Positions 2,401 to 30,919 of a stretch of DNA of 64,000 bases are shown here, piece after piece. Source of the DNA: Escherichia coli (GTDB lineage: Bacteria > Pseudomonadota > Gammaproteobacteria > Enterobacterales > Enterobacteriaceae); assembly GCF_003019035.1 (NCBI RefSeq), contig NZ_CP027447.1; one strand, written 5' to 3'. Position numbers and translations under genes: made by a program. Positions within the stretch are counted from its first letter, which is position 1. Each line of letters opens with the position of its first letter. The notes under the pieces were generated by a model. The model had not been told where the DNA came from and ran no database searches. It saw only the letters and a program-made list of their open reading frames with translations.

Positions 2401-2404
<4 letters not shown>

Positions 2405-9938: not shown

Positions 9939-10091
9939 CTACTTCTTCGATTCGTAAGCGAGAACCGCCTTAAACTCCATACCACGTTCTCTGATACTCA
10001 ACTCACACAACGAGTCGCCTACCATCAGCGTGAATCCCAGTACTGTAAAACACAGCACTATGATTGCCACAAGGGCATATTTTGTCAGCAT
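9939..10091 (-). CDS. Hok/Gef-family type I toxin (50 aa), not in ORF track because under 60 aa
   Basis: Hand translation of minus strand from ATG (complement of 10089-10091) to TAG (complement of 9939-9941): [50 protein letters not shown]. Hydrophobic N-terminus plus SLCE...AYES tail is the Hok signature; GGAGG 7 nt upstream. Confidence 0.78.
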
Positions 10092-10295
10092 GTCTTGCCT
10101 CCCTGCAAAGAAGAGACTAACATTCGAATTGTTTGGGTTCGAACGCTGGCCTCAGGTTGATAGAAATATCGCCTGGGGCTTTTGTCCATCTGGAACCTCG
10201 CGAATGCTTAACGCCAGACAGCCTCAAGCACCCAACGCCATTCTATACCTGTTAATTCTTCCAACGACGTTCACGTTTAAAATCAGGAATGCTGC

Positions 10296-12876: not shown

Positions 12877-14675
12877 TAGTAGACATCTCGCTGATAACGG
12901 CGCTCTACGCGCAGCTCACTTAAAAATTCATCCGCCGCTTCGGTGTCCATGCCACCAAATTCGGCAATCACTTCCAGAAGTGCCTGTTCAACGTCTTTCG
13001 CCATGCGATTAGCGTCGCCGCAGACATAAATGTGGGCACCGTCATTGATCCAGCGCCACAGCTCTGCGCCCTGTTCGCGCAGTTTGTCTTGTACGTAAAC
13101 TTTTTCTTTTTGATCGCGCGACCAGGCAAGATCGATGCGGCTCAATACGCCTTCTTTCACGTAGCGCTGCCACTCCACCTGGTAGAGGAAATCTTCCGTA
13201 AAGTGCGGGTTGCCAAAGAACAACCAGTTTTTACCCGGCGCTTCGTCAGCAGCACGTTGCTGCATAAAGGCGCGGAACGGCGCAATACCGGTGCCTGGGC
13301 CAATCATAATCACCGGGGTTTCCGGGTTGGCTGGCAGGCGGAAGTTGTCGTTATGTTCGATAAAGACGCGAACTTCGCCCTCTTCTTCCACACGATCCGC
13401 GAGGAAACTAGAGGCACCACCGGCACGGGCGCGGCCTTCCACGTCGTAACGCACCACACCAACGGTGACGTGTACTTCGTTCTCGACTTCCGCCTGCGAG
13501 GAGGCGATGGAATACAGGCGCGGCGTCAGCGGGCGCAGCAAGTTAATGAGGGCTTCAGCGTCAAGCTGTGCCGGAGAGAAACGCACCATGTCAACAATCG
13601 GCGTCGTCGCGGCGTAATGCTGCAACTTCGCTTTATCGCCCACCAGCGGCAGCAGCGTTTCGCTGCGGGTAAGCGTGGCATAGTTCTCAACAATGTTGGC
13701 GGTGTTGACGGTCAGTTCGAAGTGCCACTGTAGCGCTTCGTTCAGAGGCAACGTTTTGCCCTCAACGGTGACAGGTTCATCGCCTTTCAGCCACAGCAGT
13801 TCGACAAGTTCTTTCACCAGTGCCGGATCGTTCTGATACCAGACGCCCAGCGCGTCACCCGGCTGGTAACGCAGGCCCGAGTCACCTAAGTCAATTTCGA
13901 TATGGCGAACGTCTTTTTCAGAGTTACGCCCGGTAATTTTCTGGTTAACAGAGAGGCTCGCCACCAGCGGCGCGTCTTTGCTATACGGGCTGGTGTGGAT
14001 TTCATTTACCGTGCCAGTAGCGACGGATTGCGAAGGTGCCGCGACAGGCGCACGCGATTTAAGCGCATCAACCACGCGGGCGCGCCACTCGCTGGCAGCG
14101 GCCTGATATTCAACATCGGCATCGACACGGTCGAGCAGGCGTTCACCGCCCAGTTCCGCCAGCTTGCTGTCAAAATCTTTCCCGGACTGGCAGAAAAATT
14201 CATAAGAGCTATCGCCGAGGCTAAACACGGCAAATGCGGTGTTTTCCAGCTTCGGCGCTTTTTTGGAGAACAGGAACTTATGCAGCGCGACGGCTTCTTC
14301 CGGCGGTTCCCCTTCCCCTTGCGTTGACGTCACCACGATAAGCAGTTTTTCGCTGGCGATTTGTTTGAATTTATAGTCGCCCGCGTTCACCAGCTTAACG
14401 TTTAGTTTTGCCGCTAATAAGTCATCGCGTAACGCTTCAGCAACCCGGCGCGCATTGCCGGTTTGCGAGGCGGAGATAATAGTTATACCCGGCATTTCTG
14501 CGGCGGGCGCTGGCGTCGCTGCAAGCGCAGCAGGCTGCTGGTTGAGCACGCCCCAGAAATAGCCAGAAACCCAGGCAAGCTGGGTGGGAGTTAAATCGGT
14601 CGTGGCCGCCTGAAGGCGTGCCAGTTGCTCCGGGTTCAACGGAAGCAACGCGGAAGGTGAGACCTGTGTCGTCAT
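12876..14675 (-). CDS. cysJ: Sulfite reductase flavoprotein alpha subunit
   Basis: 599-aa ORF with flavodoxin-like and FAD/NADPH reductase regions; stop overlaps cysI start. Confidence 0.97.
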
Positions 14676-14990
14676 GCGTCGTTATGTTCCAGTAAGCAAA
14701 GCTGTTTCTGCGCCCTGTCAGCGCCCATAAAACAGAAGAGAAGGTAAGGTTAACGGGGTGAACGGTGTGGATTAAAGACGGGATAGCGATAACTAATAAC
14801 CAAATCGACTAACCTGTTTTAGCAATAGTCTTTAACAACAAAATAGATTACTCAACCCAATGAAAAACAAGTGAATTTAGCCAATCATTAAGATAAATCA
14901 GCGATTTTGCGCAACAAAGTCGTTTTAGATAATGCGAAAAAACAGCCTTTCCGGTACTCTACGGCGGTTTTATCGTCCTGTAGAGAAATT

Positions 14991-15356
14991 ATGATGTCCA
15001 CCACGTTATTTAAAGATTTCACCTTCGAAGCCGCTCACCGCTTACCACACGTCCCGGAAGGACATAAATGTGGTCGCCTGCACGGGCATTCCTTTATGGT
15101 GCGACTGGAAATTACCGGGGAAGTCGATCCGCATACGGGCTGGATTATCGATTTCGCTGAACTGAAAGCAGCGTTTAAACCAACCTATGATCGCCTCGAT
15201 CACTATTATCTCAATGATATTCCTGGCCTGGAAAACCCGACCAGCGAGGTTTTAGCAAAATGGATTTGGGATCAGGTTAAACCGGTTGTTCCGCTGTTAA
15301 GTGCGGTGATGGTGAAAGAAACCTGCACCGCAGGTTGCATCTATCGCGGCGAATGA
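14991..15356 (+). CDS. queD: 6-carboxy-5,6,7,8-tetrahydropterin synthase
   Basis: Frame of ORF 14907-15356; conserved 121-aa protein begins [33 protein letters not shown] at 14991. Confidence 0.93.
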
Positions 15357-15433
15357 TAAGAGTGTGTCGGCGGTCAATTTCCCTTAAGTAACGCTATGTT
15401 AGGGTGTTGCGCTCTGGATATCTGGGGCATGAC

Positions 15434-16705
15434 ATGGAAGACGACTGCGACATTATTATTATTGGTGCCGGTATAGCAGGCACCGCTTGTGCTTTACGCT
15501 GCGCGCGGGCAGGTTTATCCGTTCTGTTACTGGAACGCGCTGAAATTCCCGGCAGTAAAAACCTTTCCGGCGGGCGTTTATATACCCAGGCGCTCGCGGA
15601 ACTCCTCCCTCAGTTTCACCTGACCGCGCCTCTTGAACGACGCATCACTCACGAAAGTCTTTCTCTGCTAACGCCGGATGGCGCAACGACGTTTTCCAGC
15701 TTACAGCCCGGCGGTGAATCCTGGAGCGTATTACGTGCACGGTTCGATCCGTGGCTGGTTGCCGAAGCCGAAAAAGAAGGTGTCGAATGCATCCCTGGTG
15801 CGACGGTAGATGCGCTGTATGAAGAAAACGGCAGGGTGTGTGGTGTCATTTGTGGTGACGATATTCTCCGCGCCCGTTATGTGGTGCTGGCAGAAGGTGC
15901 CAACAGCGTCCTGGCTGAGCGTCACGGGTTAGTGACTCGTCCTGCTGGCGAAGCGATGGCGTTGGGGATCAAAGAAGTGCTGTCGCTGGAAACATCCGCT
16001 ATTGAAGAACGTTTTCATCTGGAGAATAACGAAGGCGCAGCGTTGCTGTTCAGCGGCGGGATCTGTGATGACTTACCCGGCGGCGCATTTCTTTATACTA
16101 ATCAACAAACGCTCTCGTTAGGGATTGTTTGCCCGCTCTCTTCCCTTACGCAAAGTCGTGTTCCGGCAAGCGAGCTGCTGGCTCGCTTTAAAACGCATCC
16201 GGCAGTGCGCCCGCTTATCAAAAACACGGAATCACTGGAGTATGGTGCGCATCTGGTGCCAGAAGGTGGCTTGCACAGTATGCCGGTGCAATACGCCGGT
16301 AACGGCTGGCTGCTGGTGGGCGATGCGTTGCGCAGTTGCGTCAATACCGGAATTTCCGTGCGCGGCATGGATATGGCGCTGACTGGCGCGCAGGCGGCGG
16401 CACAAACGCTGATAAGCGCCTGCCAGCACCGCGAGCCGCAAAATCTGTTTGCGCTTTATCATCACAACGTAGAGCGCAGCCTGCTATGGGATGTTCTACA
16501 ACGTTATCAGCATGTTCCGGCGCTTTTGCAACGCCCTGGATGGTACCGTGCGTGGCCTGCGTTAATGCAGGATATTTCCCGCGATTTATGGGATCAGGGT
16601 GATAAACCTGTTCCACCGCTGCGCCAGTTATTCTGGCGTCATTTACGTCGTCATGGCCTGTGGCATCTGGCGGGCGATGTTATCAGGAGTCTGCGATGTC
16701 TGTAG
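15434..16705 (+). CDS. ygcN: FAD-dependent oxidoreductase, FixC-like (ETF-quinone oxidoreductase family)
   Basis: Frame of ORF 15404-16705; start at MEDDCDIIIIGAGIAGTACAL (FAD GxGxxG) gives 423 aa. Confidence 0.88.
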   Translation: MEDDCDIIIIGAGIAGTACALRCARAGLSVLLLERAEIPGSKNLSGGRLYTQALAELLPQFHLTAPLERRITHESLSLLTPDGATTFSSLQPGGESWSVLRARFDPWLVAEAEKEGVECIPGATVDALYEENGRVCGVICGDDILRARYVVLAEGANSVLAERHGLVTRPAGEAMALGIKEVLSLETSAIEERFHLENNEGAALLFSGGICDDLPGGAFLYTNQQTLSLGIVCPLSSLTQSRVPASELLARFKTHPAVRPLIKNTESLEYGAHLVPEGGLHSMPVQYAGNGWLLVGDALRSCVNTGISVRGMDMALTGAQAAAQTLISACQHREPQNLFALYHHNVERSLLWDVLQRYQHVPALLQRPGWYRAWPALMQDISRDLWDQGDKPVPPLRQLFWRHLRRHGLWHLAGDVIRSLRCL

Positions 16706-16956
16706 CCCGTAATCTCTGGCGCGTTGCCGATGCGCCGCACATTGTTCCGGCTGACTCCGTTGAGCGTCAGACGGTACAACGGTTGATTAACGCCTGTCCG
16801 GCTGGTCTTTTTTCGCTCACACCAGAAGGTGACTTACGTATTGACTATCGCAGTTGCCTGGAGTGTGGCACCTGCCGTTTGCTGTGCGACGAAAAAACAC
16901 TACAACAGTGGCGCTATCCACCTTCCGGATTCGGCATCACCTACCGCTTTGGATAA
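16696..16956 (+). CDS. ygcO: Ferredoxin-like protein, FixX-like
   Basis: Frame of ORF 16660-16956; 86-aa product from MSVARNLW with CLECGTCRLLC cysteine cluster; overlaps ygcN end. Confidence 0.85.
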   Translation: MSVARNLWRVADAPHIVPADSVERQTVQRLINACPAGLFSLTPEGDLRIDYRSCLECGTCRLLCDEKTLQQWRYPPSGFGITYRFG

Positions 16957-16972
16957 ATAACAAGGATAATTT

Positions 16973-17548
16973 ATGTCCCTCTTACACCTGCTCCGCCAGA
17001 ATCCGGTGATTGCTGCCGTTAAAGATAATGCCAGCCTGCAACTGGCAATCGATTCTGAATGCCAGTTTATTTCCGTGCTATACGGCAATATCTGCACCAT
17101 CAGTCAAATCGTCAAAAAGATTAAAAACGCCGGGAAATATGCCTTTATTCATGTCGATTTGCTGGAAGGCGCGTCAAATAAAGAAGTGGTGATTCAGTTT
17201 TTGAAACTGGTGACTGAGGCGGACGGCATTATCAGTACCAAAGCCTCAATGTTGAAAGCGGCAAGAGCGGAAGGTTTTTTCTGTATTCATCGCCTGTTTA
17301 TTGTTGATTCAATTTCGTTTCACAACATTGATAAGCAAGTTGCGCAATCGAATCCGGATTGTATTGAGATCCTGCCAGGCTGTATGCCCAAAGTGCTGGG
17401 CTGGGTGACGGAGAAAATCCGCCAACCGCTGATTGCTGGCGGGCTGGTGTGCGATGAAGAAGATGCGCGTAATGCGATTAACGCGGGTGTTGTGGCGCTT
17501 TCCACCACGAATACTGGGGTCTGGACGTTAGCGAAAAAATTGCTTTGA
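16973..17548 (+). CDS. ygcP: GlpP-like glycerol-3-phosphate-responsive antiterminator family protein
   Basis: 191-aa ORF; family assignment from memory of the E. coli ygcP product. Confidence 0.8.
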   Translation: MSLLHLLRQNPVIAAVKDNASLQLAIDSECQFISVLYGNICTISQIVKKIKNAGKYAFIHVDLLEGASNKEVVIQFLKLVTEADGIISTKASMLKAARAEGFFCIHRLFIVDSISFHNIDKQVAQSNPDCIEILPGCMPKVLGWVTEKIRQPLIAGGLVCDEEDARNAINAGVVALSTTNTGVWTLAKKLL

Positions 17549-17582
17549 CGGGATAATCGTAACAAGTTGAATTTGGTGTGAT

Positions 17583-17692
17583 TTGTAGGCTGCACGCCAC
17601 ATCCGACATTCAGCGCCTGATGCGACGCTTGACGCGTCTTATCAGGCCTACAAGTCCCCAGGCCAGAACCGTAGGCAGGATCATCCGGCAAC
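17583..17692. repeat. REP/BIME cluster
   Basis: GCCTGATGCGACGCTTGACGCGTCTTATCAGGCCTAC flanked by further GTAGGC/GCCGGATG half-sites between ygcP and ygcQ. Confidence 0.6.
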
Positions 17693-17695
17693 ACG

Positions 17696-18556
17696 TTATT
17701 GGCAATCTGCGTGAATGTTTGTCACCAGTGCCTCCAGCACCACTTTCCAGTCATCAACCACGCCAACATCTGCCTGTGAAAATACCGCTGCGCTGGCGTC
17801 ATGATTAATCGCCACCACAAACTTGCTATTGCATACGCCCGCCATTAACGCTGCTGCGCCAGAAGCGCCAACAACAATACACACCTCAGGTGCCAGCAGA
17901 TGTCCGGAAATACCAATCACTTTTTCAGCATCAACGCCACCGTTCATCACTCGCGCCCGACTGTAGCCCACTTCGGCTCCCAGCTTTTCTGCCAGCATAG
18001 CGATTTCCTGGTTATCTGCCTCTCCGCCCTGCCCCACCACCAGCACCCGTCTGGCCTCAGCTAATGGGTCACGGGTAACATTTTTCAGATCCTCTGTGCT
18101 AACCAGCCAGTCGGGAAGCGCGCCGGGGACAATGTTCAGTTGCTGCATACCAGAGGGCAATGTGGCGTTTTTCACTGCTCCCGCCTGGCGGGCAAGGGAA
18201 AGGCATAGCGGGCGTTTTTCTGTTTGCAGCGTCGCCGTTAGCGCATTTCCCCAGTGGGATTTGCGCACGCTTACGGTTGAAATATCTAACGAAGTCACCT
18301 GGCAGATGCTTGCACCATGTAAACGCCAGGCCAGCCGTGTCGACAGTTCATCACCAAACGTTCCCGGCGGAAAGAGAACAACGTCCGCTGGCGTTCGCTG
18401 CCACTGTTCCACCAGCGCATCCAGCACCTGTTCCGCCACTACGGGCTGAGGTTCAATCTGCCAGTGTGCCAGGGTACAACCGCTGAAATCCTGTTCTGCC
18501 AGACAGCTCGCTATTGCGGCATTCTCCTGATTTATTGTCACAATTGCGATATTCAT
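17696..18556 (-). CDS. ygcQ: Electron transfer flavoprotein alpha-subunit-like protein
   Basis: Frame of ORF 17696-18589; start at MNIAIVTINQ gives 286 aa; ETF-alpha-like C-terminal FAD region. Confidence 0.85.
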   Translation of the reverse strand: MNIAIVTINQENAAIASCLAEQDFSGCTLAHWQIEPQPVVAEQVLDALVEQWQRTPADVVLFPPGTFGDELSTRLAWRLHGASICQVTSLDISTVSVRKSHWGNALTATLQTEKRPLCLSLARQAGAVKNATLPSGMQQLNIVPGALPDWLVSTEDLKNVTRDPLAEARRVLVVGQGGEADNQEIAMLAEKLGAEVGYSRARVMNGGVDAEKVIGISGHLLAPEVCIVVGASGAAALMAGVCNSKFVVAINHDASAAVFSQADVGVVDDWKVVLEALVTNIHADCQ

Positions 18557-19332
18557 GGCTGCATCCTTTGGCGTAAATAGTCCTGCCATAGCTTTTGCGC
18601 TTTTTCTGCTACCGTTTGCCCATCAATCAGCGTCGCTCCGCGTTGTTGCTCTGCTCTTGCCAGTTGCAGACACAGCATCGCTGGCGATTCGGCAGCAACA
18701 GTTTTACGGATAATTTCTGCTTTCCCCGCCGCCATTCGCTGACGCATTCCCGGTACTGGCAAGGCCACTTCACCACACTGACGCACGGCAATCACCGCAG
18801 GCAAGCGAACCCGGCAACAGCGCAGCCCGTTTTCAGTACGCTGTTCAAGGGTGATAAACGGCGCGTCGAGAGTAAAACGCTCCACCTGGGTGAAGCAGGG
18901 CCAGCCCAGCATTTCCGCCAGCAAAAATGGCGTTTGCCCATTCTGCCCTTCGCTGCTTTGGCAGCCGGTAATGATCAGATCCAGCGGATTCTGACGCTGC
19001 CATTCGGCAATATGGCGAGCGACAAATTCCGGCGCAAAGCGCAGATCTGCCACCGTCTCCAGCAATACAGCGTCCTCAAACCCAAGAGCCATGAGATAGC
19101 GCAGCCAGTGCAACGCCCGTTCATCCCCCATGCTCAACGCGGTTAAAGACATCGGCGTACCGTTTTTTCTCTGCGCTAACAGAAGCGCGGCAGCCGCCTG
19201 TTCATCAGCACCGAGTAAACTTCGCAGCAGCGAAACATCCGGTCCGCAATTACCCTGAGCCGCCACCTGCCACTCTTTTTCTGCCAGCATTCCGGCATCC
19301 GGTTCGGCTTTAAACGCTAACAGAATGTTCAT
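18553..19332 (-). CDS. ygcR: Electron transfer flavoprotein beta-subunit-like protein
   Basis: Frame of ORF 18553-19338; start at MNILLAFKAEPD gives 259 aa; overlaps ygcQ start. Confidence 0.85.
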   Translation of the reverse strand: MNILLAFKAEPDAGMLAEKEWQVAAQGNCGPDVSLLRSLLGADEQAAAALLLAQRKNGTPMSLTALSMGDERALHWLRYLMALGFEDAVLLETVADLRFAPEFVARHIAEWQRQNPLDLIITGCQSSEGQNGQTPFLLAEMLGWPCFTQVERFTLDAPFITLEQRTENGLRCCRVRLPAVIAVRQCGEVALPVPGMRQRMAAGKAEIIRKTVAAESPAMLCLQLARAEQQRGATLIDGQTVAEKAQKLWQDYLRQRMQP

Positions 19333-20647
19333 TCGCACCTCCTACATTTCCCGCCGCCACCAGCGGGAGTGCTTTGGTTTCTGGCGCCCATAACCAGGTA
19401 ACAACAAAACCAACCAACAACACTGCCGCCAGAAGCAATAAAGTGACCGGCATCCCCCACTGCGCCAGCACCCACGGCAGCAGGCCAGTACTTACCGCCG
19501 CCCCCAACCGACTCATGGCGGTGGCAAAACCGACGCCCAGCGAGCGAATGTCAGTAGGAAAACTTTCCGCAGGCAAAATGCCCACCAGATTACTGACTGC
19601 AGAAATGGTGGTGCTGAAGAGAACAAAAAGCAGCAGCGTTAATGAACTGCCGGAAGGCAAACAGGCCATCACTACCAGCGTTGCCGCCAGCAGCAAAAAA
19701 CTTCCCAGCAAAAACTTGCGATGTGCCAGCAGGTGCGTCAGAACTAATCCCAGCAGCGCGCCCACAATTAACAACGCATTAAGCATCAGGCTGGCGGTCA
19801 GCGCATCCTCCAGACCAATAGTCTGGGCGATGGTCGGCAGCCAGGTATAAATCACAAACCATGGGATTACGAGGCAGACAAAGAAGACGCTGTTAAACGC
19901 CGTGCGTCGCCAGTAGCGCGAAGAGAACAAGGTTTTGATGTGTTTATGGGTCGCCGCTGCCACTTCATCGCCCAGTAAAACATGTGGCCCCAAATAGCGA
20001 TGCACAATAGCGTGAGCTTCAGCAAAACGTCCCTGACGCATCAGCCAGCGTGGCGATTCTGGCGTTCCCCAGCGTAATAACGTAATCAACAATGCGGGCA
20101 GAGCTGCCGATGCCAACAGCCAGCGCCAGGCCTCCGGGTTTTCGGAAATAAAGTGATGTCCAGCAATACTTGCCAGCACATAGCCTACGGTCCACACCAC
20201 GCTGAATGCGCCCAGCAAAATACCGCGATGGCGGCGCGGGGAAAATTCAGCCAGCAAGGTGTGACCGACTGAGTAATCGCCTCCCAGACCAATGCCGATC
20301 AAAATGCGCAATCCAATAAGATGCTCTGGCGTGGTGGCAAAAAATTGCAAGAACGAAGCGAGCGTAATCAGCATAAAACTGAAGGTGAAAATTTTTTGCC
20401 GCCCGATATGGTCGGAGATCCACCCCAAAACCAGGCTGCCAAGAAACAAACCAAGTAACGCCGAGCCGCCGATCATTCCCGCCATAAACGGCGTCAGTTG
20501 CATGGCTGGAGTAAGCTGAATAATGGCGTAACCAATGACGCCGAGGACATAACCGTCGGTCAGGTGCGCACCGAAAGTGAGCGCAGCAATTCGACAGTGA
20601 AAACGGTTAAGCGGTAAATCATCCATTCGCACCGGTGAAGTGTTCAT
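19310..20647 (-). CDS. ygcS: MFS transporter (sugar-porter type)
   Basis: Frame of ORF 19310-20722; start at MNTSPVRMDD gives 445 aa; about 12 predicted TM helices and the GRQKIF / PESPRWL MFS motifs. Confidence 0.85.
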   Translation of the reverse strand: MNTSPVRMDDLPLNRFHCRIAALTFGAHLTDGYVLGVIGYAIIQLTPAMQLTPFMAGMIGGSALLGLFLGSLVLGWISDHIGRQKIFTFSFMLITLASFLQFFATTPEHLIGLRILIGIGLGGDYSVGHTLLAEFSPRRHRGILLGAFSVVWTVGYVLASIAGHHFISENPEAWRWLLASAALPALLITLLRWGTPESPRWLMRQGRFAEAHAIVHRYLGPHVLLGDEVAAATHKHIKTLFSSRYWRRTAFNSVFFVCLVIPWFVIYTWLPTIAQTIGLEDALTASLMLNALLIVGALLGLVLTHLLAHRKFLLGSFLLLAATLVVMACLPSGSSLTLLLFVLFSTTISAVSNLVGILPAESFPTDIRSLGVGFATAMSRLGAAVSTGLLPWVLAQWGMPVTLLLLAAVLLVGFVVTWLWAPETKALPLVAAGNVGGANEHSVSV

Positions 20648-20740
20648 CTTTACCCCTTCATTGTCCGGTAATAAGAACGGCTTCTCGCCTGAGAAGCCGA
20701 AAAGGCAACGCCCCGACATCACGGGACGCTGCCTGACACA

Positions 20741-22195
20741 TTATTTTTCAATCGGATAGATAGTACCCGTATTCATAATGCCGTTAGGATCGAACTGCTT
20801 TTTCAGCCCTTCCAGCAACGCCCACGCGCTGCCGTGTTCCAGTTTGCTCCAGTGAACGCGATGTTTACCGATACCGTGGTGGTGCACCATCGAACCGCCG
20901 AGGCGAATGGTTTCTTCGCAGATGATTTTGTTGAGCGGATTGTGGTACTTGTCGATTTCCTCTTCCGGCTTACAGTCAACGACGTTGTAGTCGTAGACGA
21001 AGTACATGTTGGTGCCGTTCTGATAGCTATGAGAGGAGTGACCGCCCAGCATGGTGATGTCGTCGGCGTGCGCGAACTCGGTACGAATACGGTTAATAAC
21101 GCTTTCGTAGATTTCGTGGATGCAGCTCCAGCAGCCGGACACTTCGGTGGTAAAGCCCATGTTGCCGGTTTTGAGGATCTGCACACGTTCAGCGGCCACT
21201 TTATCCGGCCCCCAGTTCAGGTGATTAAACCAGGTTTCGATCAGCTTGCTGTCCACGCGCTGGCATTGCGGGTAACGTGCCACGATTTCAGCAATCCCTT
21301 CGCCCGTCGCCTTCGCAATGCGAGGGTTACCTTCAGCCATAAAGATCAGCACACATTTACCATCGGCAAAATGGGTGAAGTGTTGGGTGCCATCTTCAGC
21401 GTCATACAAACGAGCGATCGACGGACGATACCCTTCCACCATGATTTCACGCAGGATGTTGAAGCCGGTTTTCATGTCTTCCAGGATATAGCCGTAGAAG
21501 AGGTTGTTTTCCGGGGTGAACTTAAAGATTTTCACTGTTACTTCAGTGATATAGCACAATGCACCTTCGTTGCCGATGATAATGTGACGAATGTCCGGGC
21601 CTGCCGCGCGGCGTGGTACGTTTTTAATACGTGTGACGGTGCCATCAGCCAATACTGCTTCCAGACCAACGACCATATCTTCGATTGCGCCGTAGAGTGT
21701 GGAGAACTGCCCGATACTGCGGGTTGCTACCAGGCCGCCCATCTGCGCCAGCGGTTTTGATTGCGGTGAATGCCCCGTGGTGTAACCTTTTTCACGCAAC
21801 GTGTTTTCCAGCACCTCCAGCGGAACACCACATTGCGCCGTGGCCTGCATATTCTCAATATCAATATTAATGATTTGATTCATGGCAGAGCCGTCGAGCA
21901 CCACCGAGTTTTCCACAACGGTTTCCAGCCCACCTTCGGTAGCGGAAGCACCGGTACGCGGCACACCGTTAATTTTGTGCGCATTCATAAAATTCAGCAC
22001 ACGGGATACTTGTTCTGTGGAACCGAGTTTTACGACCGATGCCGGAATCGGCAAAGTATAAATGCCATGAATATCCGGAAATTTGCGAAAACGGTCAATA
22101 CTGTTTTTCTTTAATACTGTTTCATCGGTAATTACGCGATCTGCACCAACAATTTCCTTTAGCTGGTCGACAATCGCTGCGCGGGATAAAGACAT
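20741..22195 (-). CDS. ygcU: FAD-linked oxidoreductase (alkyl-DHAP synthase / glycolate oxidase-like)
   Basis: 484-aa ORF with FAD-binding PCMH-type region. Confidence 0.88.
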   Translation of the reverse strand: MSLSRAAIVDQLKEIVGADRVITDETVLKKNSIDRFRKFPDIHGIYTLPIPASVVKLGSTEQVSRVLNFMNAHKINGVPRTGASATEGGLETVVENSVVLDGSAMNQIINIDIENMQATAQCGVPLEVLENTLREKGYTTGHSPQSKPLAQMGGLVATRSIGQFSTLYGAIEDMVVGLEAVLADGTVTRIKNVPRRAAGPDIRHIIIGNEGALCYITEVTVKIFKFTPENNLFYGYILEDMKTGFNILREIMVEGYRPSIARLYDAEDGTQHFTHFADGKCVLIFMAEGNPRIAKATGEGIAEIVARYPQCQRVDSKLIETWFNHLNWGPDKVAAERVQILKTGNMGFTTEVSGCWSCIHEIYESVINRIRTEFAHADDITMLGGHSSHSYQNGTNMYFVYDYNVVDCKPEEEIDKYHNPLNKIICEETIRLGGSMVHHHGIGKHRVHWSKLEHGSAWALLEGLKKQFDPNGIMNTGTIYPIEK

Positions 22196-22264
22196 AGTAA
22201 TTCCTTCCTGATAATAAAAATGGAATAGTCATTAATAAGAGAAAACAGAAACCACCGTTATGGA

Positions 22265-23050
22265 TTAGCGCACTAAATAACCGCCATCGACCACTAATAA
22301 ATGCCCGTTAACATAATTTGAAGCCGGACTTGCGAGGAATACGGCTGCGCCCATTAAATCCTGAGTATCACCCCAACGGTTTGCCGGTATATGATCAAGA
22401 ACGCGCTGATTGGTTTCTGGATTACTGCGTGTTGCCAGCGTAATATCGGTTGCATAATATCCCGGGGCAATACCATTCACCTGAATATTATATTGACCTA
22501 ATTCATCGCAATAGGCTTTGGTGAATCCAGCAAGAGCATGTTTAGTGGCAGAATAAGCAGGTGACCATTGTCCACCTAAGTAAGAGAACAATGAACAGAT
22601 ATTAATGATTTTACCGCTTTTCTGCGGGATCATAATTTTTGCTGCTTCGTAGCTTAACTCGAATGCGGCGGTCAGGTTCACATCAATCATCGGGTCCCAG
22701 TCGGCACGACCGAAGTCCAGCACCTTATTCAGCTTACAAATACCGGCATTGTTAACCAGAATATCTACGGTACCGAAGCGCTCACAGCAGGCAGCGATAA
22801 TCTTCTGCGGCGCGCCTTCTGCGGTGATATCCACCTGCATAAAATCAACTTCGACACCCTGTTTTTCAATCATTTCCTTTGTTTCGCCGTTATCTTTGAC
22901 GAAGCTAGGGATAAAGACATTTGCGCCAGCTTTGGCCAACGCCATGGCAAATGCCTGGCCTAAACCGCTATTCCCGCCGGTAACAATTGCTGTTTTACCT
23001 TTCAGGGAGAAAAAATCCATTGAGAACGCATTGAGAGATTCGATTGACAT
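22265..23050 (-). CDS. ygcW: Short-chain dehydrogenase/reductase
   Basis: Frame of ORF 22265-23062; TGGNSGLG Rossmann motif and YSATK catalytic motif. Confidence 0.9.
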   Translation of the reverse strand: MSIESLNAFSMDFFSLKGKTAIVTGGNSGLGQAFAMALAKAGANVFIPSFVKDNGETKEMIEKQGVEVDFMQVDITAEGAPQKIIAACCERFGTVDILVNNAGICKLNKVLDFGRADWDPMIDVNLTAAFELSYEAAKIMIPQKSGKIINICSLFSYLGGQWSPAYSATKHALAGFTKAYCDELGQYNIQVNGIAPGYYATDITLATRSNPETNQRVLDHIPANRWGDTQDLMGAAVFLASPASNYVNGHLLVVDGGYLVR

Positions 23051-23366
23051 AGTTAGCTCCAATTTCCGTAAGGCAAAAAAAAGAAAGGTAACTTCCCCCG
23101 CGAGAGGGAAGTTACCTTTCTCATTATCTCTGGTAACTGGATATAATTTTTAGCATAAGGGCATAAGCGCTAATGTGATCGTAATCACAGTGTGATATTC
23201 GTATTATCAAATAATTTTAAAAAGCAGAAGCGTGACTACTCTCACACAACACCACTGCTTTCCATGTTATTTCTTATTGCAATTACTAGAGACCTGAGAA
23301 AAGTAATCCACCTGAAAGGGCGGCTTACTTTTCTCTTTTTTTGTCTATTACAAATGGGAATACGAT

Positions 23367-24644
23367 ATGCAACACAACTCATATCGCCGTTGGATAACCC
23401 TCGCGATAATTAGTTTTAGCGGCGGCGTTAGTTTCGACCTGGCTTATTTACGTTATATTTATCAAATTCCCATGGCGAAATTTATGGGATTCAGCAATAC
23501 CGAGATAGGTTTAATAATGAGTACCTTTGGTATTGCAGCTATTATTCTTTATGCGCCCAGTGGCGTTATTGCCGATAAATTCTCACATCGCAAAATGATT
23601 ACTTCCGCGATGATCATTACCGGATTACTGGGTCTGTTAATGGCAACTTATCCACCGCTGTGGGTAATGCTCTGTATTCAGGTTGCCTTTGCGATAACGA
23701 CGATTTTAATGCTGTGGTCGGTGTCGATTAAAGCCGCATCGTTGCTGGGCGATCATAGCGAGCAAGGGAAAATTATGGGCTGGATGGAAGGGCTGCGCGG
23801 CGTCGGTGTAATGTCGCTGGCGGTGTTTACCATGTGGGTCTTTTCTCGCTTTGCACCGGATGACAGCGCCAGCCTGAAAACGGTCATTATCATCTACAGT
23901 GTGGTCTACATTTTATTGGGGATTCTGTGCTGGTTTTTTGTTAGCGATAACAACAACCTGCGCAATACCAATAACAAAGAAAAACAGTCATTCCAGCTTA
24001 GCGACATCCTGGCCGTTTTGCGCATCAGCACCACCTGGTATTGCAGCATGGTGATTTTTGGTGTCTTCACCATCTACGCCATTCTGAGTTACTCCACCAA
24101 CTATCTCACCGAAATGTACGGCATGTCGCTGGTGGCGGCGAGCTACATGGGGATTGTGATCAACAAAATATTCCGCGCGCTGTGTGGTCCACTTGGCGGC
24201 ATTATCACCACCTACAGTAAAGTGAAATCCCCTACCCGCGTGATCCAAATCCTTTCCGTACTCGGCTTGCTGGCGTTAACTGCCCTGCTCGTCACGAACT
24301 CTAACCCGCAATCGGTCGCGATGGGGATTGGCCTGATTTTACTGCTGGGATTCACCTGTTACGCCTCACGCGGGCTGTACTGGGCCTGCCCTGGCGAAGC
24401 GAGAACACCGTCTTACATTATGGGCACCACGGTAGGTATTTGTTCGGTGATTGGATTCCTGCCGGATGTCTTCGTTTACCCGATTATCGGCTACTGGCAA
24501 GACACCCTGCCCGCTGCAGAAGCCTACCGCAATATGTGGCTGATGGGCATGGCGGCGCTTGCCATGGTGATCGTCTTTACCTTTTTGCTGTTCCAAAAAA
24601 TTCGTACTGCTGATAGCGCCCCTGCTATGGCTAGCAGCAAGTAA
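23367..24644 (+). CDS. yqcE: MFS transporter
   Basis: 425-aa multi-TM ORF divergent from ygcW. Confidence 0.85.
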   Translation: MQHNSYRRWITLAIISFSGGVSFDLAYLRYIYQIPMAKFMGFSNTEIGLIMSTFGIAAIILYAPSGVIADKFSHRKMITSAMIITGLLGLLMATYPPLWVMLCIQVAFAITTILMLWSVSIKAASLLGDHSEQGKIMGWMEGLRGVGVMSLAVFTMWVFSRFAPDDSASLKTVIIIYSVVYILLGILCWFFVSDNNNLRNTNNKEKQSFQLSDILAVLRISTTWYCSMVIFGVFTIYAILSYSTNYLTEMYGMSLVAASYMGIVINKIFRALCGPLGGIITTYSKVKSPTRVIQILSVLGLLALTALLVTNSNPQSVAMGIGLILLLGFTCYASRGLYWACPGEARTPSYIMGTTVGICSVIGFLPDVFVYPIIGYWQDTLPAAEAYRNMWLMGMAALAMVIVFTFLLFQKIRTADSAPAMASSK

Positions 24645-24670
24645 GTCCAGAAAATTACAGGAGAAAAATC

Positions 24671-26149
24671 ATGTCGAAAAAATACATCATAGGGATTGAT
24701 GGCGGAAGTCAGAGCACAAAAGTGGTGATGTATGATCTGGAAGGTAATGTGGTTTGCGAAGGCAAAGGCTTATTGCAGCCGATGCACACGCCAGATGCCG
24801 ATACCGCAGAACATCCTGACGACGATTTATGGGCATCATTATGTTTTGCCGGTCACGATTTGATGAGTCAGTTTGCCGGAAATAAAGAAGATATTGTCGG
24901 CATTGGTCTGGGATCCATCCGTTGCTGCCGTGCGTTATTGAAAGCCGATGGCACACCAGCTGCGCCGTTGATTAGCTGGCAGGATGCACGCGTTACACGC
25001 CCTTACGAACATACGAATCCTGACGTGGCATATGTCACCTCTTTTTCGGGTTATCTGACGCATCGCTTAACCGGCGAGTTTAAAGACAATATCGCCAACT
25101 ATTTTGGTCAGTGGCCGGTGGATTATAAGACCTGGGCATGGAGCGAAGATACCGCGGTAATGGAGAAGTTTAATATTCCCCGACAGATGCTTTTTGATGT
25201 GCAAATGCCGGGCACTGTTCTTGGGCATATCACTCGTCAAGCCGCGCTGGCGACACATTTCCCGGCTGGGCTGCCGGTTGTTTGTACCACCAGTGATAAA
25301 CCGGTAGAAGCTCTGGGAGCCGGATTACTGGATGATGAAACGGCGGTGATTTCTCTTGGCACCTACATCGCGCTGATGATGAACGGTAAAGCACTGCCGA
25401 AAGATCCGGTAGCGTACTGGCCGATTATGTCTTCTATTCCGCAAACCTTGCTGTATGAAGGTTACGGTATCCGCAAAGGCATGTGGACGGTGAGCTGGCT
25501 ACGCGACATGCTAGGCGAGTCGTTAATTCAGGATGCCAAAGCACAGGATCTTTCACCGGAAGATTTGCTCAACAAAAAAGCGTCTTGTGTGCCGCCTGGC
25601 TGTAATGGTCTGATGACGGTGCTGGACTGGCTGACCAATCCGTGGGAACCATACAAACGCGGGATTATGATCGGCTTTGATTCCAGCATGGATTACGCAT
25701 GGATATATCGTTCGATACTGGAAAGCGTGGCGCTGACGCTGAAGAACAATTACGACAATATGTGTAATGAAATGAATCACTTTGCAAAGCATGTGATCAT
25801 TACTGGCGGCGGTTCGAACAGCGATCTGTTTATGCAGATTTTTGCCGACGTGTTCAACCTTCCGGCACGCCGTAACGCCATTAATGGTTGTGCAAGTCTG
25901 GGGGCAGCGATCAATACGGCGGTAGGTCTGGGGCTATACCCGGATTACGCAACGGCTGTCGACAAAATGGTTCGCGTGAAAGATATCTTTATGCCTGTTG
26001 AGAGCAACGCCAAACGCTACGACGCGATGAATAAAGGCATTTTCAAAGACCTAACCAAACACACTGATGTGATCCTGAAAAAATCGTATGAAGTGATGCA
26101 TGGTGAGCTGGGGAATGAAGATTCGATCCAGAGCTGGTCGAATGCGTAA
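24671..26149 (+). CDS. ygcE: FGGY-family carbohydrate kinase
   Basis: 492-aa ORF MSKKYIIGIDGGSQSTKVVMYD... with FGGY N- and C-terminal ATPase signatures. Confidence 0.9.
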   Translation: MSKKYIIGIDGGSQSTKVVMYDLEGNVVCEGKGLLQPMHTPDADTAEHPDDDLWASLCFAGHDLMSQFAGNKEDIVGIGLGSIRCCRALLKADGTPAAPLISWQDARVTRPYEHTNPDVAYVTSFSGYLTHRLTGEFKDNIANYFGQWPVDYKTWAWSEDTAVMEKFNIPRQMLFDVQMPGTVLGHITRQAALATHFPAGLPVVCTTSDKPVEALGAGLLDDETAVISLGTYIALMMNGKALPKDPVAYWPIMSSIPQTLLYEGYGIRKGMWTVSWLRDMLGESLIQDAKAQDLSPEDLLNKKASCVPPGCNGLMTVLDWLTNPWEPYKRGIMIGFDSSMDYAWIYRSILESVALTLKNNYDNMCNEMNHFAKHVIITGGGSNSDLFMQIFADVFNLPARRNAINGCASLGAAINTAVGLGLYPDYATAVDKMVRVKDIFMPVESNAKRYDAMNKGIFKDLTKHTDVILKKSYEVMHGELGNEDSIQSWSNA

Positions 26150-26194
26150 GTGAGGAAGACCGGGCGGGAAACTGCCCGGCCTGAACATACCTGA

Positions 26195-26343
26195 ATGGTT
26201 ATCCCCGCTGACGCGGGGAACATAAGTTCGACAACTTAAAAAATGATAACAAGTCCGGTTTATCCCCGCTGATGCAGGGAACATAATAAAAACTTTAACT
26301 AGTTCGGTTTATCCCTGTTTTTACAAGGAATATTAACTACACT
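26195..26343 (-). CRISPR. Decayed orphan CRISPR remnant: 3 degenerate I-E repeats, 2 spacers
   Basis: Repeat-like units at 26195-26223, 26256-26284 (CGGTTTATCCCCGCTGATGCAGGGAACAT) and 26315-26343 (CGGTTTATCCCTGTTTTTACAAGGAATAT); spacers 32 and 30 nt. Confidence 0.7.
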
Positions 26344-26786
26344 CGATGTCTTTAGAATAAAAGACAATACGAATCGCACTTTATCAATTTTCACTTAAAG
26401 TATGAACTGGATATCTTTATTCATAAGAACTATTCATCAACAGCCTATAGAGGCGGTTATGTAAAACCACTCATTAGCCTCAAAACAAAGACAAATTTCC
26501 AGATTTATTACTTAATCAATGAATAACAAGCTTAAAAAATACACTGTTATTCTAAAGAAAAAATTAACAGGCATTAATTAATATTAAAAAAATAATAGAT
26601 TAAAATTTCTTAACGGTTTAAGGATTATACAAATAACACTTTGATTAAATTTGATTTTTTGTATCGATAATTGTGAACTTATCTGGCATGGAGAACTATT
26701 TTGAACATGAGGTGTTATGTGGATATGTTGCTTATTACAAGTACAGCTAATATAAAAACTTGAGAAAGAGATAACGGGTTATATGG

Positions 26787-27059
26787 TGGTTTATCCCCGC
26801 TGGTGCGGGGAACTCTTGGCATAGGCGCTATAGCGGCGCTCTGTGTCCGGTTTATCCCCGCTGGCACGGGGAACTCGTTGGTGCCGTTGTTGTAACCGTA
26901 GAAACCGACGGTTTATCCCCGCTGACGTGGGGAACTCGCAGGTCAACACGGGCGATAAACCCGGCTGACCGGTTTATCCCCGCTGACGTGGGGAACTCGA
27001 TAAGCAGATTGCAGAACTACAGGCGAAGGACGGTTTATCCCCGCTGACGTGGGGAACTC
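26787..27059 (-). CRISPR. Orphan type I-E CRISPR array: 5 repeats, 4 spacers
   Basis: 29-nt repeats at 26787, 26848, 26909, 26970 and 27031 (61-nt period), consensus CGGTTTATCCCCGCTGRCRYGGGGAACTC; ends in ...AACTC rather than the ...AACAC of the cas-proximal array. Confidence 0.95.
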
Positions 27060-27200
27060 TCTAAACATAACCTATTATTAATTAATGATTTTTTAAGCCA
27101 GTCACAATCTACCAACTTTACAGGATCACACAAACAACACATCCATTATGTTAAAGAACACTTAATCCATTGATTAAAAAAGTAAATATTTAAAATAACT
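27060..27200 (-). promoter_or_regulatory. Leader of the second CRISPR array
   Basis: AT-rich; CTAAACATA... start and CACAATCTACCAAC at 27104-27117 parallel the first leader at the same distance from repeat 1. Confidence 0.55.
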
Positions 27201-27397
27201 CTATACCCACTAAAATCTACCAAACTTTACCGCAATAATTTTCACTCCAACGAAAAATTAACGCCACAGAATTTGTAGAGAATGATAATGATTAGCCCAG
27301 AATGGGCAAAATGGAGTTTTTTCAGAGGCGACAAAGAATATAAATAAGTGGAAGTCTTTACAGGTTCCACCCATTTATAACGCTTATAAATGTTTAA

Positions 27398-28069
27398 TCA
27401 GGCAATATTCAAATATTTATGTGTCTGCATCGACAAACGCCAGTTGCGCGCTATGCAGGTATCGATACATAAACGCGTAGCATCTTCCTTCTGGCTAATT
27501 GGCTGAAGTGCAATGACTCGCGGTTTATCATCGGTCAGCGTCGCAAGCAATTCATCCAGTGCTTCGATATCACGTACGCGTCCCACTGGATGCTTGATTT
27601 CGTTGGCTCGCTCCAGTGCCTGTGACAACACTTCATAGCCGCCGCGCATATTCAGCTTTGGCGATACGGTAACCCAGGTATTCGGTGTGCAGCGTACTTC
27701 ATGAGTACCACTGGTTTCGATCTGGCAGCTAAAACCGTTCTTTTCGAGCTGGTCAGTCAGTGGCAGCAAATCATGAATGCAAGGCTCACCACCCGTAATC
27801 ACCACATGCCGTGCGGTGTATCCCTGGCGACCAATGACAGCCAGCAAATCTTCACTGCTCGCAGCCCCCCACTTATCACTCTCTTTGGTCTTCGCCAGAA
27901 TGCTGAAAAGGGAAACTTCCCGATCCTCAAGCTTTTCCCAGGTGTGTTTGGTGTCGCACCAGGCACAGCCAACCGGGCATCCCTGTAAACGAATAAAAAT
28001 GGCGGGGACGCCGGTAAAGTAACCCTCACCTTGCAGGGTCTGGAACATCTCGTTAATCGGGTACTGCAT
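27398..28069 (-). CDS. queE: 7-carboxy-7-deazaguanine synthase (radical SAM)
   Basis: 223-aa ORF MQYPINEMFQTLQGEGYFTGVPAIFIRLQGCPVGCAWCDTKHTW (CxxxCxxC radical-SAM motif variant typical of QueE). Confidence 0.95.
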   Translation of the reverse strand: MQYPINEMFQTLQGEGYFTGVPAIFIRLQGCPVGCAWCDTKHTWEKLEDREVSLFSILAKTKESDKWGAASSEDLLAVIGRQGYTARHVVITGGEPCIHDLLPLTDQLEKNGFSCQIETSGTHEVRCTPNTWVTVSPKLNMRGGYEVLSQALERANEIKHPVGRVRDIEALDELLATLTDDKPRVIALQPISQKEDATRLCIDTCIARNWRLSMQTHKYLNIA

Positions 28070-28241
28070 AGCATTCTCTGTGAAGTGGATAATTGTTAAT
28101 TATTGCAGATCCTGCCACAACAATCATGTCTTATTAACATTCTGTTACAGGCAGGTTTAAGGCAAAAAGTGGATGAGATCATAAAGAATAAAATGAAGCG
28201 GCGTATTATGTTTTAAGGAATTAATTAAAAGGGACATAGAC

Positions 28242-28844
28242 ATGCTCAGGATATTCATCGTAATTATATTTATTGTCAATTTATCAGGCTGTGGATATAA
28301 CGATATTCAAACCTATGATGAGCAGGTTAACGCCTCCTGGTCTGAGGTATTGAATCAATATCAACGTCGCGCCGATCTTATTCCTAATCTTGTCGCCAGT
28401 ATTAAAGGTTATTCCAGCCATGAACAAGAGGTACTGGAAGCCGTAACATTGGCACGTAGCCAGGCTAATCGCGCCAGTAGCGATCTTCAGCAAGCTCCGG
28501 GAGATGCGCAAAAATTACAAGCCTGGCAACAAGCCCAGGCGCAGGTGTCTCGCACTCTCGGTCAGTTAACGATAATTAGTGAACGTTACCCTGAGTTAAA
28601 AGCTCAGGAACTCTATCAAAACTTAATGGTACAGCTCGAAGGAAGTGAAAATAGAATTGCCGTTGCGCGAGGAAGATATATTAAAGCCATTGAACAATAT
28701 AATGTCACTATCCGCAAATTCCCCGCTGTATTAACCGCAAAGGTCATGGATTACACACCAAAGAAAAATTATTTGCCGGATGATGTCACCGCAGTAAGTA
28801 AAGCCCCAACAATAGATTTTAGCCAGAATGCTAATGCGCATTAA
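28242..28844 (+). CDS. LemA-family lipoprotein
   Basis: 200-aa ORF with signal peptide and lipobox (LSGC), then a LemA-like helical region (NASWSEVLNQYQRRADLIPNLV). Confidence 0.85.
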   Translation: MLRIFIVIIFIVNLSGCGYNDIQTYDEQVNASWSEVLNQYQRRADLIPNLVASIKGYSSHEQEVLEAVTLARSQANRASSDLQQAPGDAQKLQAWQQAQAQVSRTLGQLTIISERYPELKAQELYQNLMVQLEGSENRIAVARGRYIKAIEQYNVTIRKFPAVLTAKVMDYTPKKNYLPDDVTAVSKAPTIDFSQNANAH

Positions 28845-28857
28845 GCGGGGAAGTTCT

Positions 28858-29751
28858 ATGCGAAATTTTATCTTCCTTATGGCTTTCTTCTGTTCATCTG
28901 TGTTTGCCACACAAATTCCAGTACCTGAATCCCCCAAGTATGTGAATGACTTAACCGGCACATTAACAAACAGCGAAGTAAACACCCTGACCAACCAGAT
29001 TAAAGCCCTGACGCAAAAAAACCACGCACAGTTGGTCGTGTTAGTGGTTGATACAACAGGCGATGAAACCATCGAGCAGTACGCAACGCGGGTATTCGAT
29101 AGCTGGAAACCGGGTGATAAAGACCGCGATGATGGCGTTCTACTGTTAGTCGCCTGGCAGGATCATACCGTGCGTATTGAAATCGGTTACGGACTGGAAG
29201 GTATTATTACGGATGCACAGTCCGGGAAAATTATTCGCAACAGTATTATTCCGGCATTTAAAAAAGGCGACCTGGCTGGTGGTTTACAAAAGGGGATCAA
29301 CGATATTGAAAGTCGCCTGACGGGGAATAATTCAGCAACGATAACACCGACCGATCACCCTTTGCCCTTTAGCGGTTGGTGGGCTTTGTTAGTCTGGGCG
29401 ATAATACTGACGTTTATTTCTGCCAGAGGATATATCAAAACGCTGGGACTGATTTGCTTCGCAGCTATTGTACTGGCCTTTGTTTTACCTATAGCAGGTT
29501 TCAGCGGAAGCTGGGGAGTGCTCGCAACATTACTCTGCTTCGCCACACCGTTCCTGGCTGTCGCCATCGCTTTTACTCCCTTCGGCAAAAAGGTTCGGGA
29601 TTCGATGCGTAATACCAACCAGCCATCACGCCATACAAGAAGTAATTCTTCCTCCCACTATTCGTCATCGTCATCCTCTTCATTCGACAATGACAATTTC
29701 CGCGGTGGTGGCGGTTCATCTGGTGGCGGTGGCGCTTCCGGACGCTGGTAA
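28858..29751 (+). CDS. TPM-domain membrane protein (YgcG-like), paralog 1
   Basis: Frame of ORF 28828-29751; start at MRNFIFLMAFF (signal peptide) after GGGGAAG; TPM core ([24 protein letters not shown]), 2-3 TM helices, Ser-rich linker and tail [15 protein letters not shown]. Confidence 0.85.
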   Translation: MRNFIFLMAFFCSSVFATQIPVPESPKYVNDLTGTLTNSEVNTLTNQIKALTQKNHAQLVVLVVDTTGDETIEQYATRVFDSWKPGDKDRDDGVLLLVAWQDHTVRIEIGYGLEGIITDAQSGKIIRNSIIPAFKKGDLAGGLQKGINDIESRLTGNNSATITPTDHPLPFSGWWALLVWAIILTFISARGYIKTLGLICFAAIVLAFVLPIAGFSGSWGVLATLLCFATPFLAVAIAFTPFGKKVRDSMRNTNQPSRHTRSNSSSHYSSSSSSSFDNDNFRGGGGSSGGGGASGRW

Positions 29752-29765
29752 CAAAAGGAATTGAT

Positions 29766-30914: not shown

Positions 30915-30919
30915 TCGTT

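Follow-up and report, generated by a model that had tools for sequence, protein, structure and literature searches.

The genes queD and queE, which encode consecutive steps of queuosine biosynthesis, are separated by 12,041 bp in the Escherichia coli chromosome segment analyzed here (64,000 nucleotides of RefSeq assembly GCF_003019035.1, contig NZ_CP027447.1; hereafter "the window"). The interval contains the ten genes of the ygc block (ygcN to ygcE), followed by two small type I-E clustered regularly interspaced short palindromic repeat (CRISPR) arrays. We propose that queE and queD were first adjacent, that the ygc genes were inserted later as a module and passed between genera, and that the arrays, which belong to the CRISPR-II locus, are the product of a separate event. 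We place the probability of this reading at about 85%.

Gene positions were taken from the annotation of strain SCU-301, to which positions 14000 to 29000 of the window are 100% identical; the region was matched by 5425 of 5426 complete E. coli genomes. On the left, the interval is bounded by queD (ygcM; 6-carboxytetrahydropterin synthase; 14991-15356, plus strand), which is divergent from cysJ, and on the right by queE (ygcF; 7-carboxy-7-deazaguanine synthase; 27398-28069, minus strand), which is convergent with queD. Both products were assigned at the level of NCBIfam equivalogs (QueD, TIGR03367, 111.6 bits against a cutoff of 89.25; QueE, TIGR04322, 368.5 bits against a cutoff of 200). queF (50556-51404, plus strand; TIGR03138, 435 bits against a cutoff of 293) lies outside the site, 22.5 kb past queE. 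The initial annotation had placed queD and queE about 12 kb apart around ygcN-ygcE and the arrays, with exact coordinates and gene calls, and its distance of a further 22 kb to queF agrees with our measurement.

The queE/queD junction and the distribution of the ygc module

To define the state of the site outside E. coli, a QueE-based scan with one genome per species was used; it comprised the best 80 of at least 588 QueE loci, from about 35 genera, and the window's 21 neighboring proteins were mapped onto each locus. Four loci could not be scored, as their contigs ended too soon. Among the remaining 76, queE and queD were convergent and separated by only 28 to 184 bp in 40, the ygc block lay directly 3' of queE in 17, and other content stood between the two genes in 19. 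cysJIH was found beyond queD wherever the sequence was long enough, and eno and pyrG were found upstream of queE, at distances that varied among the loci. Empty sites held a terminator-type hairpin alone, sometimes accompanied by repetitive extragenic palindromic (REP)-like repeats. Convergent, adjacent queE and queD next to cysJIH were also seen in the outgroups Yersinia ruckeri (56 bp apart), Serratia ficaria (63 bp), and Dickeya solani (39 bp), and a single DAO-family gene separated them in Mixta calida. On a 58-taxon neighbor-joining tree of queE, eno, and pyrG, Fitch parsimony assigned the empty state to the root and required at least 10 state changes. These comparisons suggest that the empty, adjacent state is old within Enterobacterales. 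The idea, already put forward in the initial annotation, of an ancestral queD-queE neighborhood that received the island is supported by the 40 adjacent species, by the outgroups in Yersiniaceae and Pectobacteriaceae, and by the empty root. Nor was the event peculiar to E. coli, given the scattered occurrence of the block over genera, with at least 10 gains or losses.

queD and queE were convergent in the window and in every related locus examined. Because a convergent pair is not cotranscribed, the ancestral arrangement would never have been a que operon that the island split.

Carriers of the island included all three Escherichia species sampled, four Citrobacter species, Raoultella terrigena, Superficieibacter, Yokenella, and several other Enterobacteriaceae isolates. 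Its presence varied within Citrobacter, Klebsiella, Cedecea, Raoultella, and Pluralibacter. For example, Klebsiella spallanzanii carries the island but K. pneumoniae, K. oxytoca, and K. grimontii do not, and Cedecea neteri carries it but C. davisae does not. Island-bearing and empty Citrobacter species were sisters on the tree of queE, eno, and pyrG. Complete loci of the Citrobacter youngae and Cedecea neteri types had the identical ten genes between queD and queE, ordered and oriented as in E. coli; in these loci iap directly follows cysH, without a cas operon.

The insertion reading of the E. coli layout is supported most strongly by copies of the module elsewhere. Limnobaculum parvum (Budviciaceae) has the ten genes, ordered as in E. 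coli, beside a radA-like gene. In Serratia fonticola, the full set of ten lies by metH, with ygcP shifted to the opposite end, and Pantoea sp. BAV 3049 has a version of the module that lacks the flavoprotein genes. Since the ten-gene block is found at unrelated chromosomal sites, it is a portable module that is independent of the queD/queE site. No homology was found outside the genes, either upstream of ygcN or downstream of ygcE, between the Limnobaculum or Serratia fonticola copies and the E. coli locus, so the finest limits that can be set for the edges of the module are the 77-bp spacer on the left and the hairpin of ygcE on the right. The left spacer, between queD and ygcN (15357-15433), is homologous in E. 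coli and C. youngae but not to the DNA upstream of ygcN in Limnobaculum and Serratia fonticola, and a hairpin scan of it found no terminator-like structure.

We compared the mean protein identity of core genes (queE, eno, and pyrG), slowly diverging island genes (ygcE, yqcE, ygcW, ygcU, and ygcP), and fast-diverging island genes (ygcS, ygcR, ygcQ, and ygcO). Between C. youngae and K. spallanzanii, core identity was 96.2%, with values of 98.5% for the slow and 93.2% for the fast island genes. Between C. youngae and Citrobacter Cu233, the core was 99.4% identical, with values of 94.3% and 75.8%, respectively. Island and core thus disagree in both directions, which indicates that the history of the island differs from that of the core and that genera probably exchanged the island at this one site. 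It would most likely have spread by homologous recombination across the conserved flanking DNA.

In E. coli, the island has the character of resident chromosome: 5060 of 5426 genomes contain 80% or more of it in a single place, and its divergence from K-12 (95 to 97% identity at the nucleotide level) equals that of cysHIJ, queD, and queE.

Content other than the ygc module was diverse, with identities given here as Pfam assignments. Kluyvera has a His_Phos_2 phosphatase at the site; the Enterobacter cloacae group and Leclercia, a major facilitator superfamily (MFS) transporter with an M20 peptidase and an AraC-type regulator; Enterobacter sp. BIGb0383, an MFS_2 transporter with an alpha-L-arabinofuranosidase domain protein; Shimwellia, an alpha/beta-hydrolase; Enterobacteriaceae bacterium LSJC7 and Mixta, a DAO oxidoreductase; K. 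oxytoca and Kosakonia pseudosacchari, a lone short-chain dehydrogenase 75 to 76% identical to YgcW; and Salmonella, an MBL-fold gene. I-E CRISPR arrays occur there in two Phytobacter species, a Pseudocitrobacter metagenome-assembled genome (MAG), and Salmonella. The interval can therefore be empty or hold the ygc module, CRISPR arrays, or one of at least six other protein cargoes from unrelated Pfam families; judged from these contents, the queE/queD gap is a recurrent insertion site, with at least seven cargoes besides the ygc module. The initial annotation had named, as an observation that would speak against insertion, related genera in which unrelated conserved genes already separate queD and queE. 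In the loci examined, the cargo differs by genus and never forms a conserved set.

One carrier has additional DNA at this site. In Pluralibacter sp. UBA7423, about 6.9 kb of AT-rich sequence (GC content, 0.44; locus positions 1655-8597) lies between queE and ygcE and encodes several large proteins, one with repeated proline-rich and lysine/alanine-rich segments. This segment resembles a later insertion nested within the same site.

A search of the literature found no earlier account of the queE/queD gap as a cargo hotspot and no specific work on queD/queE synteny, the gap being discussed only as the position of CRISPR2; nor was a description of the ygc block as a portable module found.

Composition, mobility signs, and the CRISPR-II arrays

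The initial annotation had suggested comparing the composition of the island with that of its flanks, and the difference it looked for was absent by two measures. GC content at third codon positions (GC3) ranged from 0.45 to 0.61 in the ten ygc genes, compared with 0.51 in queD, 0.55 in queE, 0.52 in eno, and 0.57 in pyrG. The dinucleotide delta* of positions 15400-26150 against the remaining window was 41.9, within the range of 23 to 52 seen for segments of the same size. Composition was rejected as a sign of foreign origin, as per-gene GC and GC3, the GC profile, and delta* of ygcN-ygcE are all ordinary. The AT-rich parts of the neighborhood are instead the CRISPR leaders (GC content, 0.38) and the lemA/TPM genes past queE (GC3, 0.38 to 0.48).

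Signs of mobility were also sought. ARAGORN detected no tRNA or tmRNA gene at positions 10000-33000 of the window, and no integrase, transposase, or other mobility gene was annotated or matched among the ten genes of the block, all of which are metabolic, transport, or regulatory genes. No direct repeats of at least 11 bp were shared between the left junction (15331-15445) and the right zone (26141-27400), the sole shared 10-mer being at chance level, and a search of the site for known RNA families was negative.

The arrays by queE match the published CRISPR-II locus between ygcE and ygcF, which consists of CRISPR2.2 and CRISPR2.3, about 0.5 kb apart, with the leader beside CRISPR2.3 (PMC3903273). 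Touchon and Rocha had already assigned CRISPR2 to the core interval cysJ-ygcF, in Escherichia as well as in Salmonella (PMC2886076). In the window, the 29-nucleotide I-E repeat occurs in seven copies with at most 3 mismatches to the consensus at positions 26196-27057, where none would be expected by chance. CRISPR2.2 (about 26195-26333, minus strand; assigned by repeat scan and PMC3903273) has 2 to 3 degenerate repeats. CRISPR2.3 (about 26787-27067, minus strand) has 5 repeats at 61-bp spacing with 1 to 2 mismatches each and runs in the same direction as queE; its AT-rich leader (27068-27397, minus strand) lies between the first repeat and the stop codon of queE. In position, repeat type, array distance, and leader placement, the locus is like the CRISPR2 described for E. 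coli and Salmonella. It differs in nothing substantive, the arrays here being short and the repeats degenerate. All seven repeats deviate from the consensus by 1 to 3 bases, and three have GACGTG in place of GGCGCG, a substitution that should weaken the repeat hairpin; the CRISPR-II arrays of this strain look to be decaying.

The term "orphan," which the initial annotation applied to these arrays, was mistaken, since the same window contains an intact I-E cas operon (1191-9744, minus strand; eight intact open reading frames, from cas2 at 1191-1484 to cas3 at 7045-9744) and the partner array CRISPR-I (396-1092, minus strand; 12 perfect repeats). The seeding of the arrays together with the island, proposed in the same annotation, also fails to hold, because arrays without the island and an island without arrays both occur. 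In the 13 island-bearing species outside Escherichia, no I-E repeats were found between queE and ygcE: the gap is 40 to 124 bp in 12 of them, and in Pluralibacter sp. UBA7423 it is taken up by the 6.9 kb of unrelated AT-rich DNA. Conversely, an I-E array without ygc genes lies directly 3' of queE in Phytobacter ursingii, Phytobacter massiliensis, the Pseudocitrobacter MAG, and MAG UBA3516. In Salmonella enterica, the order is queE, a leader of about 295 bp, an array of about 20 repeats, the MBL-fold gene, and queD; the locus relied upon was recognized by the presence of sopD after cysH. E. coli SCPM-O-B-8794 has the island but no array.

Every array found 3' of queE had its leader facing the queE 3' end and the same reading direction as queE. 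Across genera, just the 60 to 90 bp of the leader nearest the repeats align, the remainder not being homologous; hence, one ancestral array and repeated acquisition are both compatible with these leaders. Orthology of the queE-side leaders was considered as evidence and dropped, as the alignment is limited to the 60 to 90 bp by the repeats. The position of CRISPR-II by queE does not depend on the ygc module. Were the position and orientation of the arrays next to queE to reflect function and not history, for example through read-through from queE into the array, this would be new.

Two further loci concern the arrays. Upstream of queE, K. spallanzanii shows a third array position in this neighborhood: the DNA between eno and a lemA-like gene contains an I-E array with 22 repeats or more (locus positions 6154-7500). 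A record labelled Salmonella enterica serovar Choleraesuis (GCA_022846635.1, AP025685.1; 4.26 Mb) has cysD directly after cysH and lacks iap, cas, and sopD; it was set aside as a representative of Salmonella, as its label may be wrong.

Alternative histories of the interval

Under our proposal, queE and queD would originally have stood tail to tail between eno and cysJIH, with a short spacer containing a terminator hairpin. As no transcription would have crossed this spacer, DNA could have been added there without harm to either gene. A ready-made ten-gene catabolic module, comprising two transporters, a sugar-type kinase, a short-chain dehydrogenase, a flavin adenine dinucleotide (FAD) oxidase with a flavoprotein chain, and a GlpP-type antiterminator, may then have landed in the spacer somewhere within Enterobacteriaceae. 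It would later have been passed among genera and repeatedly lost, most likely by homologous recombination via the flanking genes, and Escherichia would have retained it as resident chromosome. The CRISPR-II arrays probably arrived separately, given that several genera have an I-E array at the spot 3' of queE, whether or not they carry the module; in Escherichia, which has both, the module stands nearer to queD than the array does.

Several points weigh against this history. The scan leans to relatives of E. coli in its sampling. The tree was built from three genes beside the site, which could have undergone recombination as well, and it was midpoint rooted, so that 10 events is a rough count. 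The order includes an exception to adjacency, Erwinia sp. E602, in which no queD lies within 7 kb of queE. Composition carries no signature and hence offers no independent support for a foreign origin; by the rule of the initial annotation this would count against insertion, a rule that is weak for old or within-family transfer. No integrase, transposase, tRNA gene, or flanking direct repeat of at least 11 bp was found that would point to the mechanism of the original insertion. Finally, the divergence of the island from E. coli broadly follows that of the core, as would likewise be expected after a single old insertion and many later losses.

This last point is the basis of a history in which a single ancient insertion in an early Enterobacteriaceae ancestor was followed by vertical descent and many clean deletions, without transfer between genera. 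The identity of the island to E. coli does fall with that of the core (Citrobacter, 0.93 for the island and 0.96 for the core; Cedecea, 0.84 and 0.93), Escherichia and Citrobacter have a common queD-ygcN junction, and deletions do occur. However, the sole deletion observed, in E. coli STEC1587, removed ygcN through most of ygcE; in this strain queD is followed by the 3' remnant of ygcE and then by the CRISPR array and queE. The remnant shows that deletion leaves a scar, whereas the empty sites of other species are 28 to 184 bp long and hold only the hairpin. Vertical descent is likewise at odds with an island that is more similar than the core between C. youngae and K. spallanzanii and far less similar than the core between two Citrobacter species at 99.4% core identity, and with sister taxa that differ in carrying the island. 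We regard a single insertion with purely vertical descent as unlikely.

An original separation of queD and queE, with adjacency elsewhere derived by deletion or rearrangement, could draw on the Erwinia locus and on the 19 loci with some other insert between the genes. We judge it very improbable: adjacency is seen in three families with the same flanks (cysJIH and usually eno), the intervening cargo varies by genus rather than forming a conserved set, and the parsimony root is empty. That the island and the CRISPR-II arrays arrived as one unit is scarcely credible. The Escherichia arrays do abut the ygcE terminator, and both features lie inside the queD-queE interval. Yet 13 carriers outside Escherichia lack the repeats, Salmonella, two Phytobacter species, the Pseudocitrobacter MAG, and UBA3516 have the array without ygc genes, SCPM-O-B-8794 shows the reverse, and the modules of Limnobaculum, Serratia fonticola, and Pantoea, judged from their gene maps, have no attached I-E array.

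An adjacent queE/queD pair that later received the ygc module and, separately, the arrays would explain an oddity of the E. coli map, namely that consecutive queuosine genes lie 12 kb apart, through insertion into a harmless tail-to-tail gap. The gene order of E. coli and the position of CRISPR2 are already published, and a multicargo gap and a portable ygc module are ordinary cases of well-known genome dynamics. Nothing here changes the understanding of queuosine synthesis or CRISPR biology. A more far-reaching claim would make the 30- to 180-bp queE/queD spacer a family-wide landing pad, free of mobility genes, that took up eight or more kinds of cargo in independent events, among them I-E arrays with the leader always toward queE, as well as a ygc cassette apparently controlled by CRP and an antiterminator; we consider this improbable.

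Module content, neighboring genes, and known systems

The ten genes fall into three transcription units. The first (15434-17548, plus strand) comprises ygcN (FixC-like FAD oxidoreductase), ygcO (FixX-like ferredoxin), and ygcP (GlpP-type antiterminator); the NCBIfam FixC and FixX subfamily matches of YgcN and YgcO were below the cutoff. The second (17696-23050, minus strand) contains ygcW (KduD-like short-chain dehydrogenase), ygcU (FAD-linked oxidase), ygcS (MFS, sugar-porter type), and ygcR and ygcQ (electron-transfer flavoprotein beta and alpha); the genes of this unit were assigned from the annotation, NCBIfam, and the Pfam matches of orthologues. The third (23367-26149, plus strand), at the right end of the module, consists of yqcE (MFS transporter) and ygcE (FGGY carbohydrate kinase). 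The ygcE terminator hairpin (26150-26194, plus strand) marks the right edge, and an equivalent hairpin was present 3' of ygcE in all island carriers. From this domain content, the module would import, phosphorylate, and oxidize a substrate, passing electrons through its own flavoprotein chain. A literature search on the function of the ygc genes returned nothing specific, and no paper assigning a substrate was found.

The region between the divergent ygcW and yqcE genes (23051-23366) carries two candidate control elements. In the ygcW leader, a T run follows a strong terminator hairpin whose stem is 19 bp long (23081-23122, minus strand); this hairpin was kept in all 11 island-bearing taxa examined, with stem substitutions that preserve pairing. 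Upstream of this hairpin, most of the 11 taxa have a TGTGA-N6-TCACA motif, which matches the consensus of a CRP site. YgcP matches PF04309 (G3P_antiterm) with an E value of 1.4e-62 over 173 of 173 profile positions. A GlpP-type YgcP together with the conserved leader hairpin and the CRP-like motif suggests antitermination and catabolite repression as the controls of the ygc operon and, for the block, the role of a catabolic cassette under this predicted control. The ygc genes would thus form a coherent, self-regulated, and widely exchanged cassette, and the defined ten-gene unit, with its pairs of carriers and noncarriers, offers a basis for assigning function.

Rates of divergence differ within the block. 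The flavoprotein genes and ygcS (15434-16956 and 17696-20719; ygcN, ygcO, ygcQ, ygcR, and ygcS) diverge fast between genera, with 37 to 89% protein identity, compared with 77 to 97% for ygcW, ygcP, ygcU, ygcE, and yqcE. Even in E. coli SCPM-O-B-8794, YgcO, YgcQ, and YgcR are merely 86 to 90% identical. Relaxed constraint, allele replacement, or exchange with the paralogous fix/ydi flavoprotein genes may be the cause. YgcU (20741-22195) is 80 to 85% identical to homologs in other Enterobacterales families and about 71 to 73% identical to homologs in Firmicutes (Sporomusa and Alkalihalobacillus), Photobacterium, and Desulfobacula. This conservation across phyla is unusually high; some sources annotate the protein as alkyl-dihydroxyacetone-phosphate synthase-like.

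In the SCU-301 annotation, the neighborhood runs from iap, CRISPR-I, cas2 to cas3, hok, cysH-cysI-cysJ (minus strand), and queD (plus) to ygcN-ygcO-ygcP (plus), ygcQ-ygcR-ygcS-ygcU-ygcW (minus), yqcE-ygcE (plus), the CRISPR array, queE (minus), lemA with three TPM-domain genes, eno, and pyrG. lemA and the TPM-domain genes (28242-31792), between queE and eno, are the only AT-rich gene cluster of the neighborhood, and at the same position K-12 has yqcG and ygcG only. Across genera, the eno-queE gap ranges from 124 bp to 5.2 kb, so that queE is bordered by a second variable site on its opposite flank. A hok/sok toxin-antitoxin pair (9939-10233; sok, RF01794, 111 bits) lies between cas3 and cysH, at a place where sokX RNA alone is annotated in K-12. 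Relative to RefSeq SCU-301, the window has an 8-bp indel in the casA-cas3 spacer (about position 6990), a single-base difference at 42100, and one 61-bp repeat-spacer unit fewer in CRISPR-I (about position 1094); bar these differences, the first 44 kb are identical. Positions 1-6994 thus do not carry a divergent cas allele relative to SCU-301, the difference there consisting of the indel and the missing unit.

Compared with a classical integrase- and tRNA-associated genomic island, the ygc block is similar in its patchy distribution (17 of 76 scorable species) and differs in having no tRNA site, mobility gene, flanking repeats, or composition shift. Integration hotspots, that is, core-flanked chromosomal intervals that gather varied accessory genes, offer a closer parallel in that queE and queD bound varied cargo without mobility genes, distributed patchily off the species tree. 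The queE/queD site differs from these in being tiny when empty (28 to 184 bp) and in lying between convergent genes.

In Bacillus subtilis, GlpP regulates glycerol catabolic genes by antitermination at a leader terminator. The ygc module resembles this system in its full-length G3P_antiterm protein and in the conserved terminator hairpin of the ygcW operon leader; it differs in its substrate and enzymes (an FGGY kinase, a short-chain dehydrogenase, and an FAD oxidase with a flavoprotein chain), and the antitermination role of YgcP is a prediction. The queCDEF genes of B. subtilis form an operon for preQ0/preQ1 biosynthesis. Enterobacterales differ in that queD (plus strand) and queE (minus strand) are convergent, with queF 22.5 kb away in the window. 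What the two systems have in common is that queD and queE, as consecutive steps of the pathway, would also have been physical neighbors in the ancestral Enterobacterales layout.

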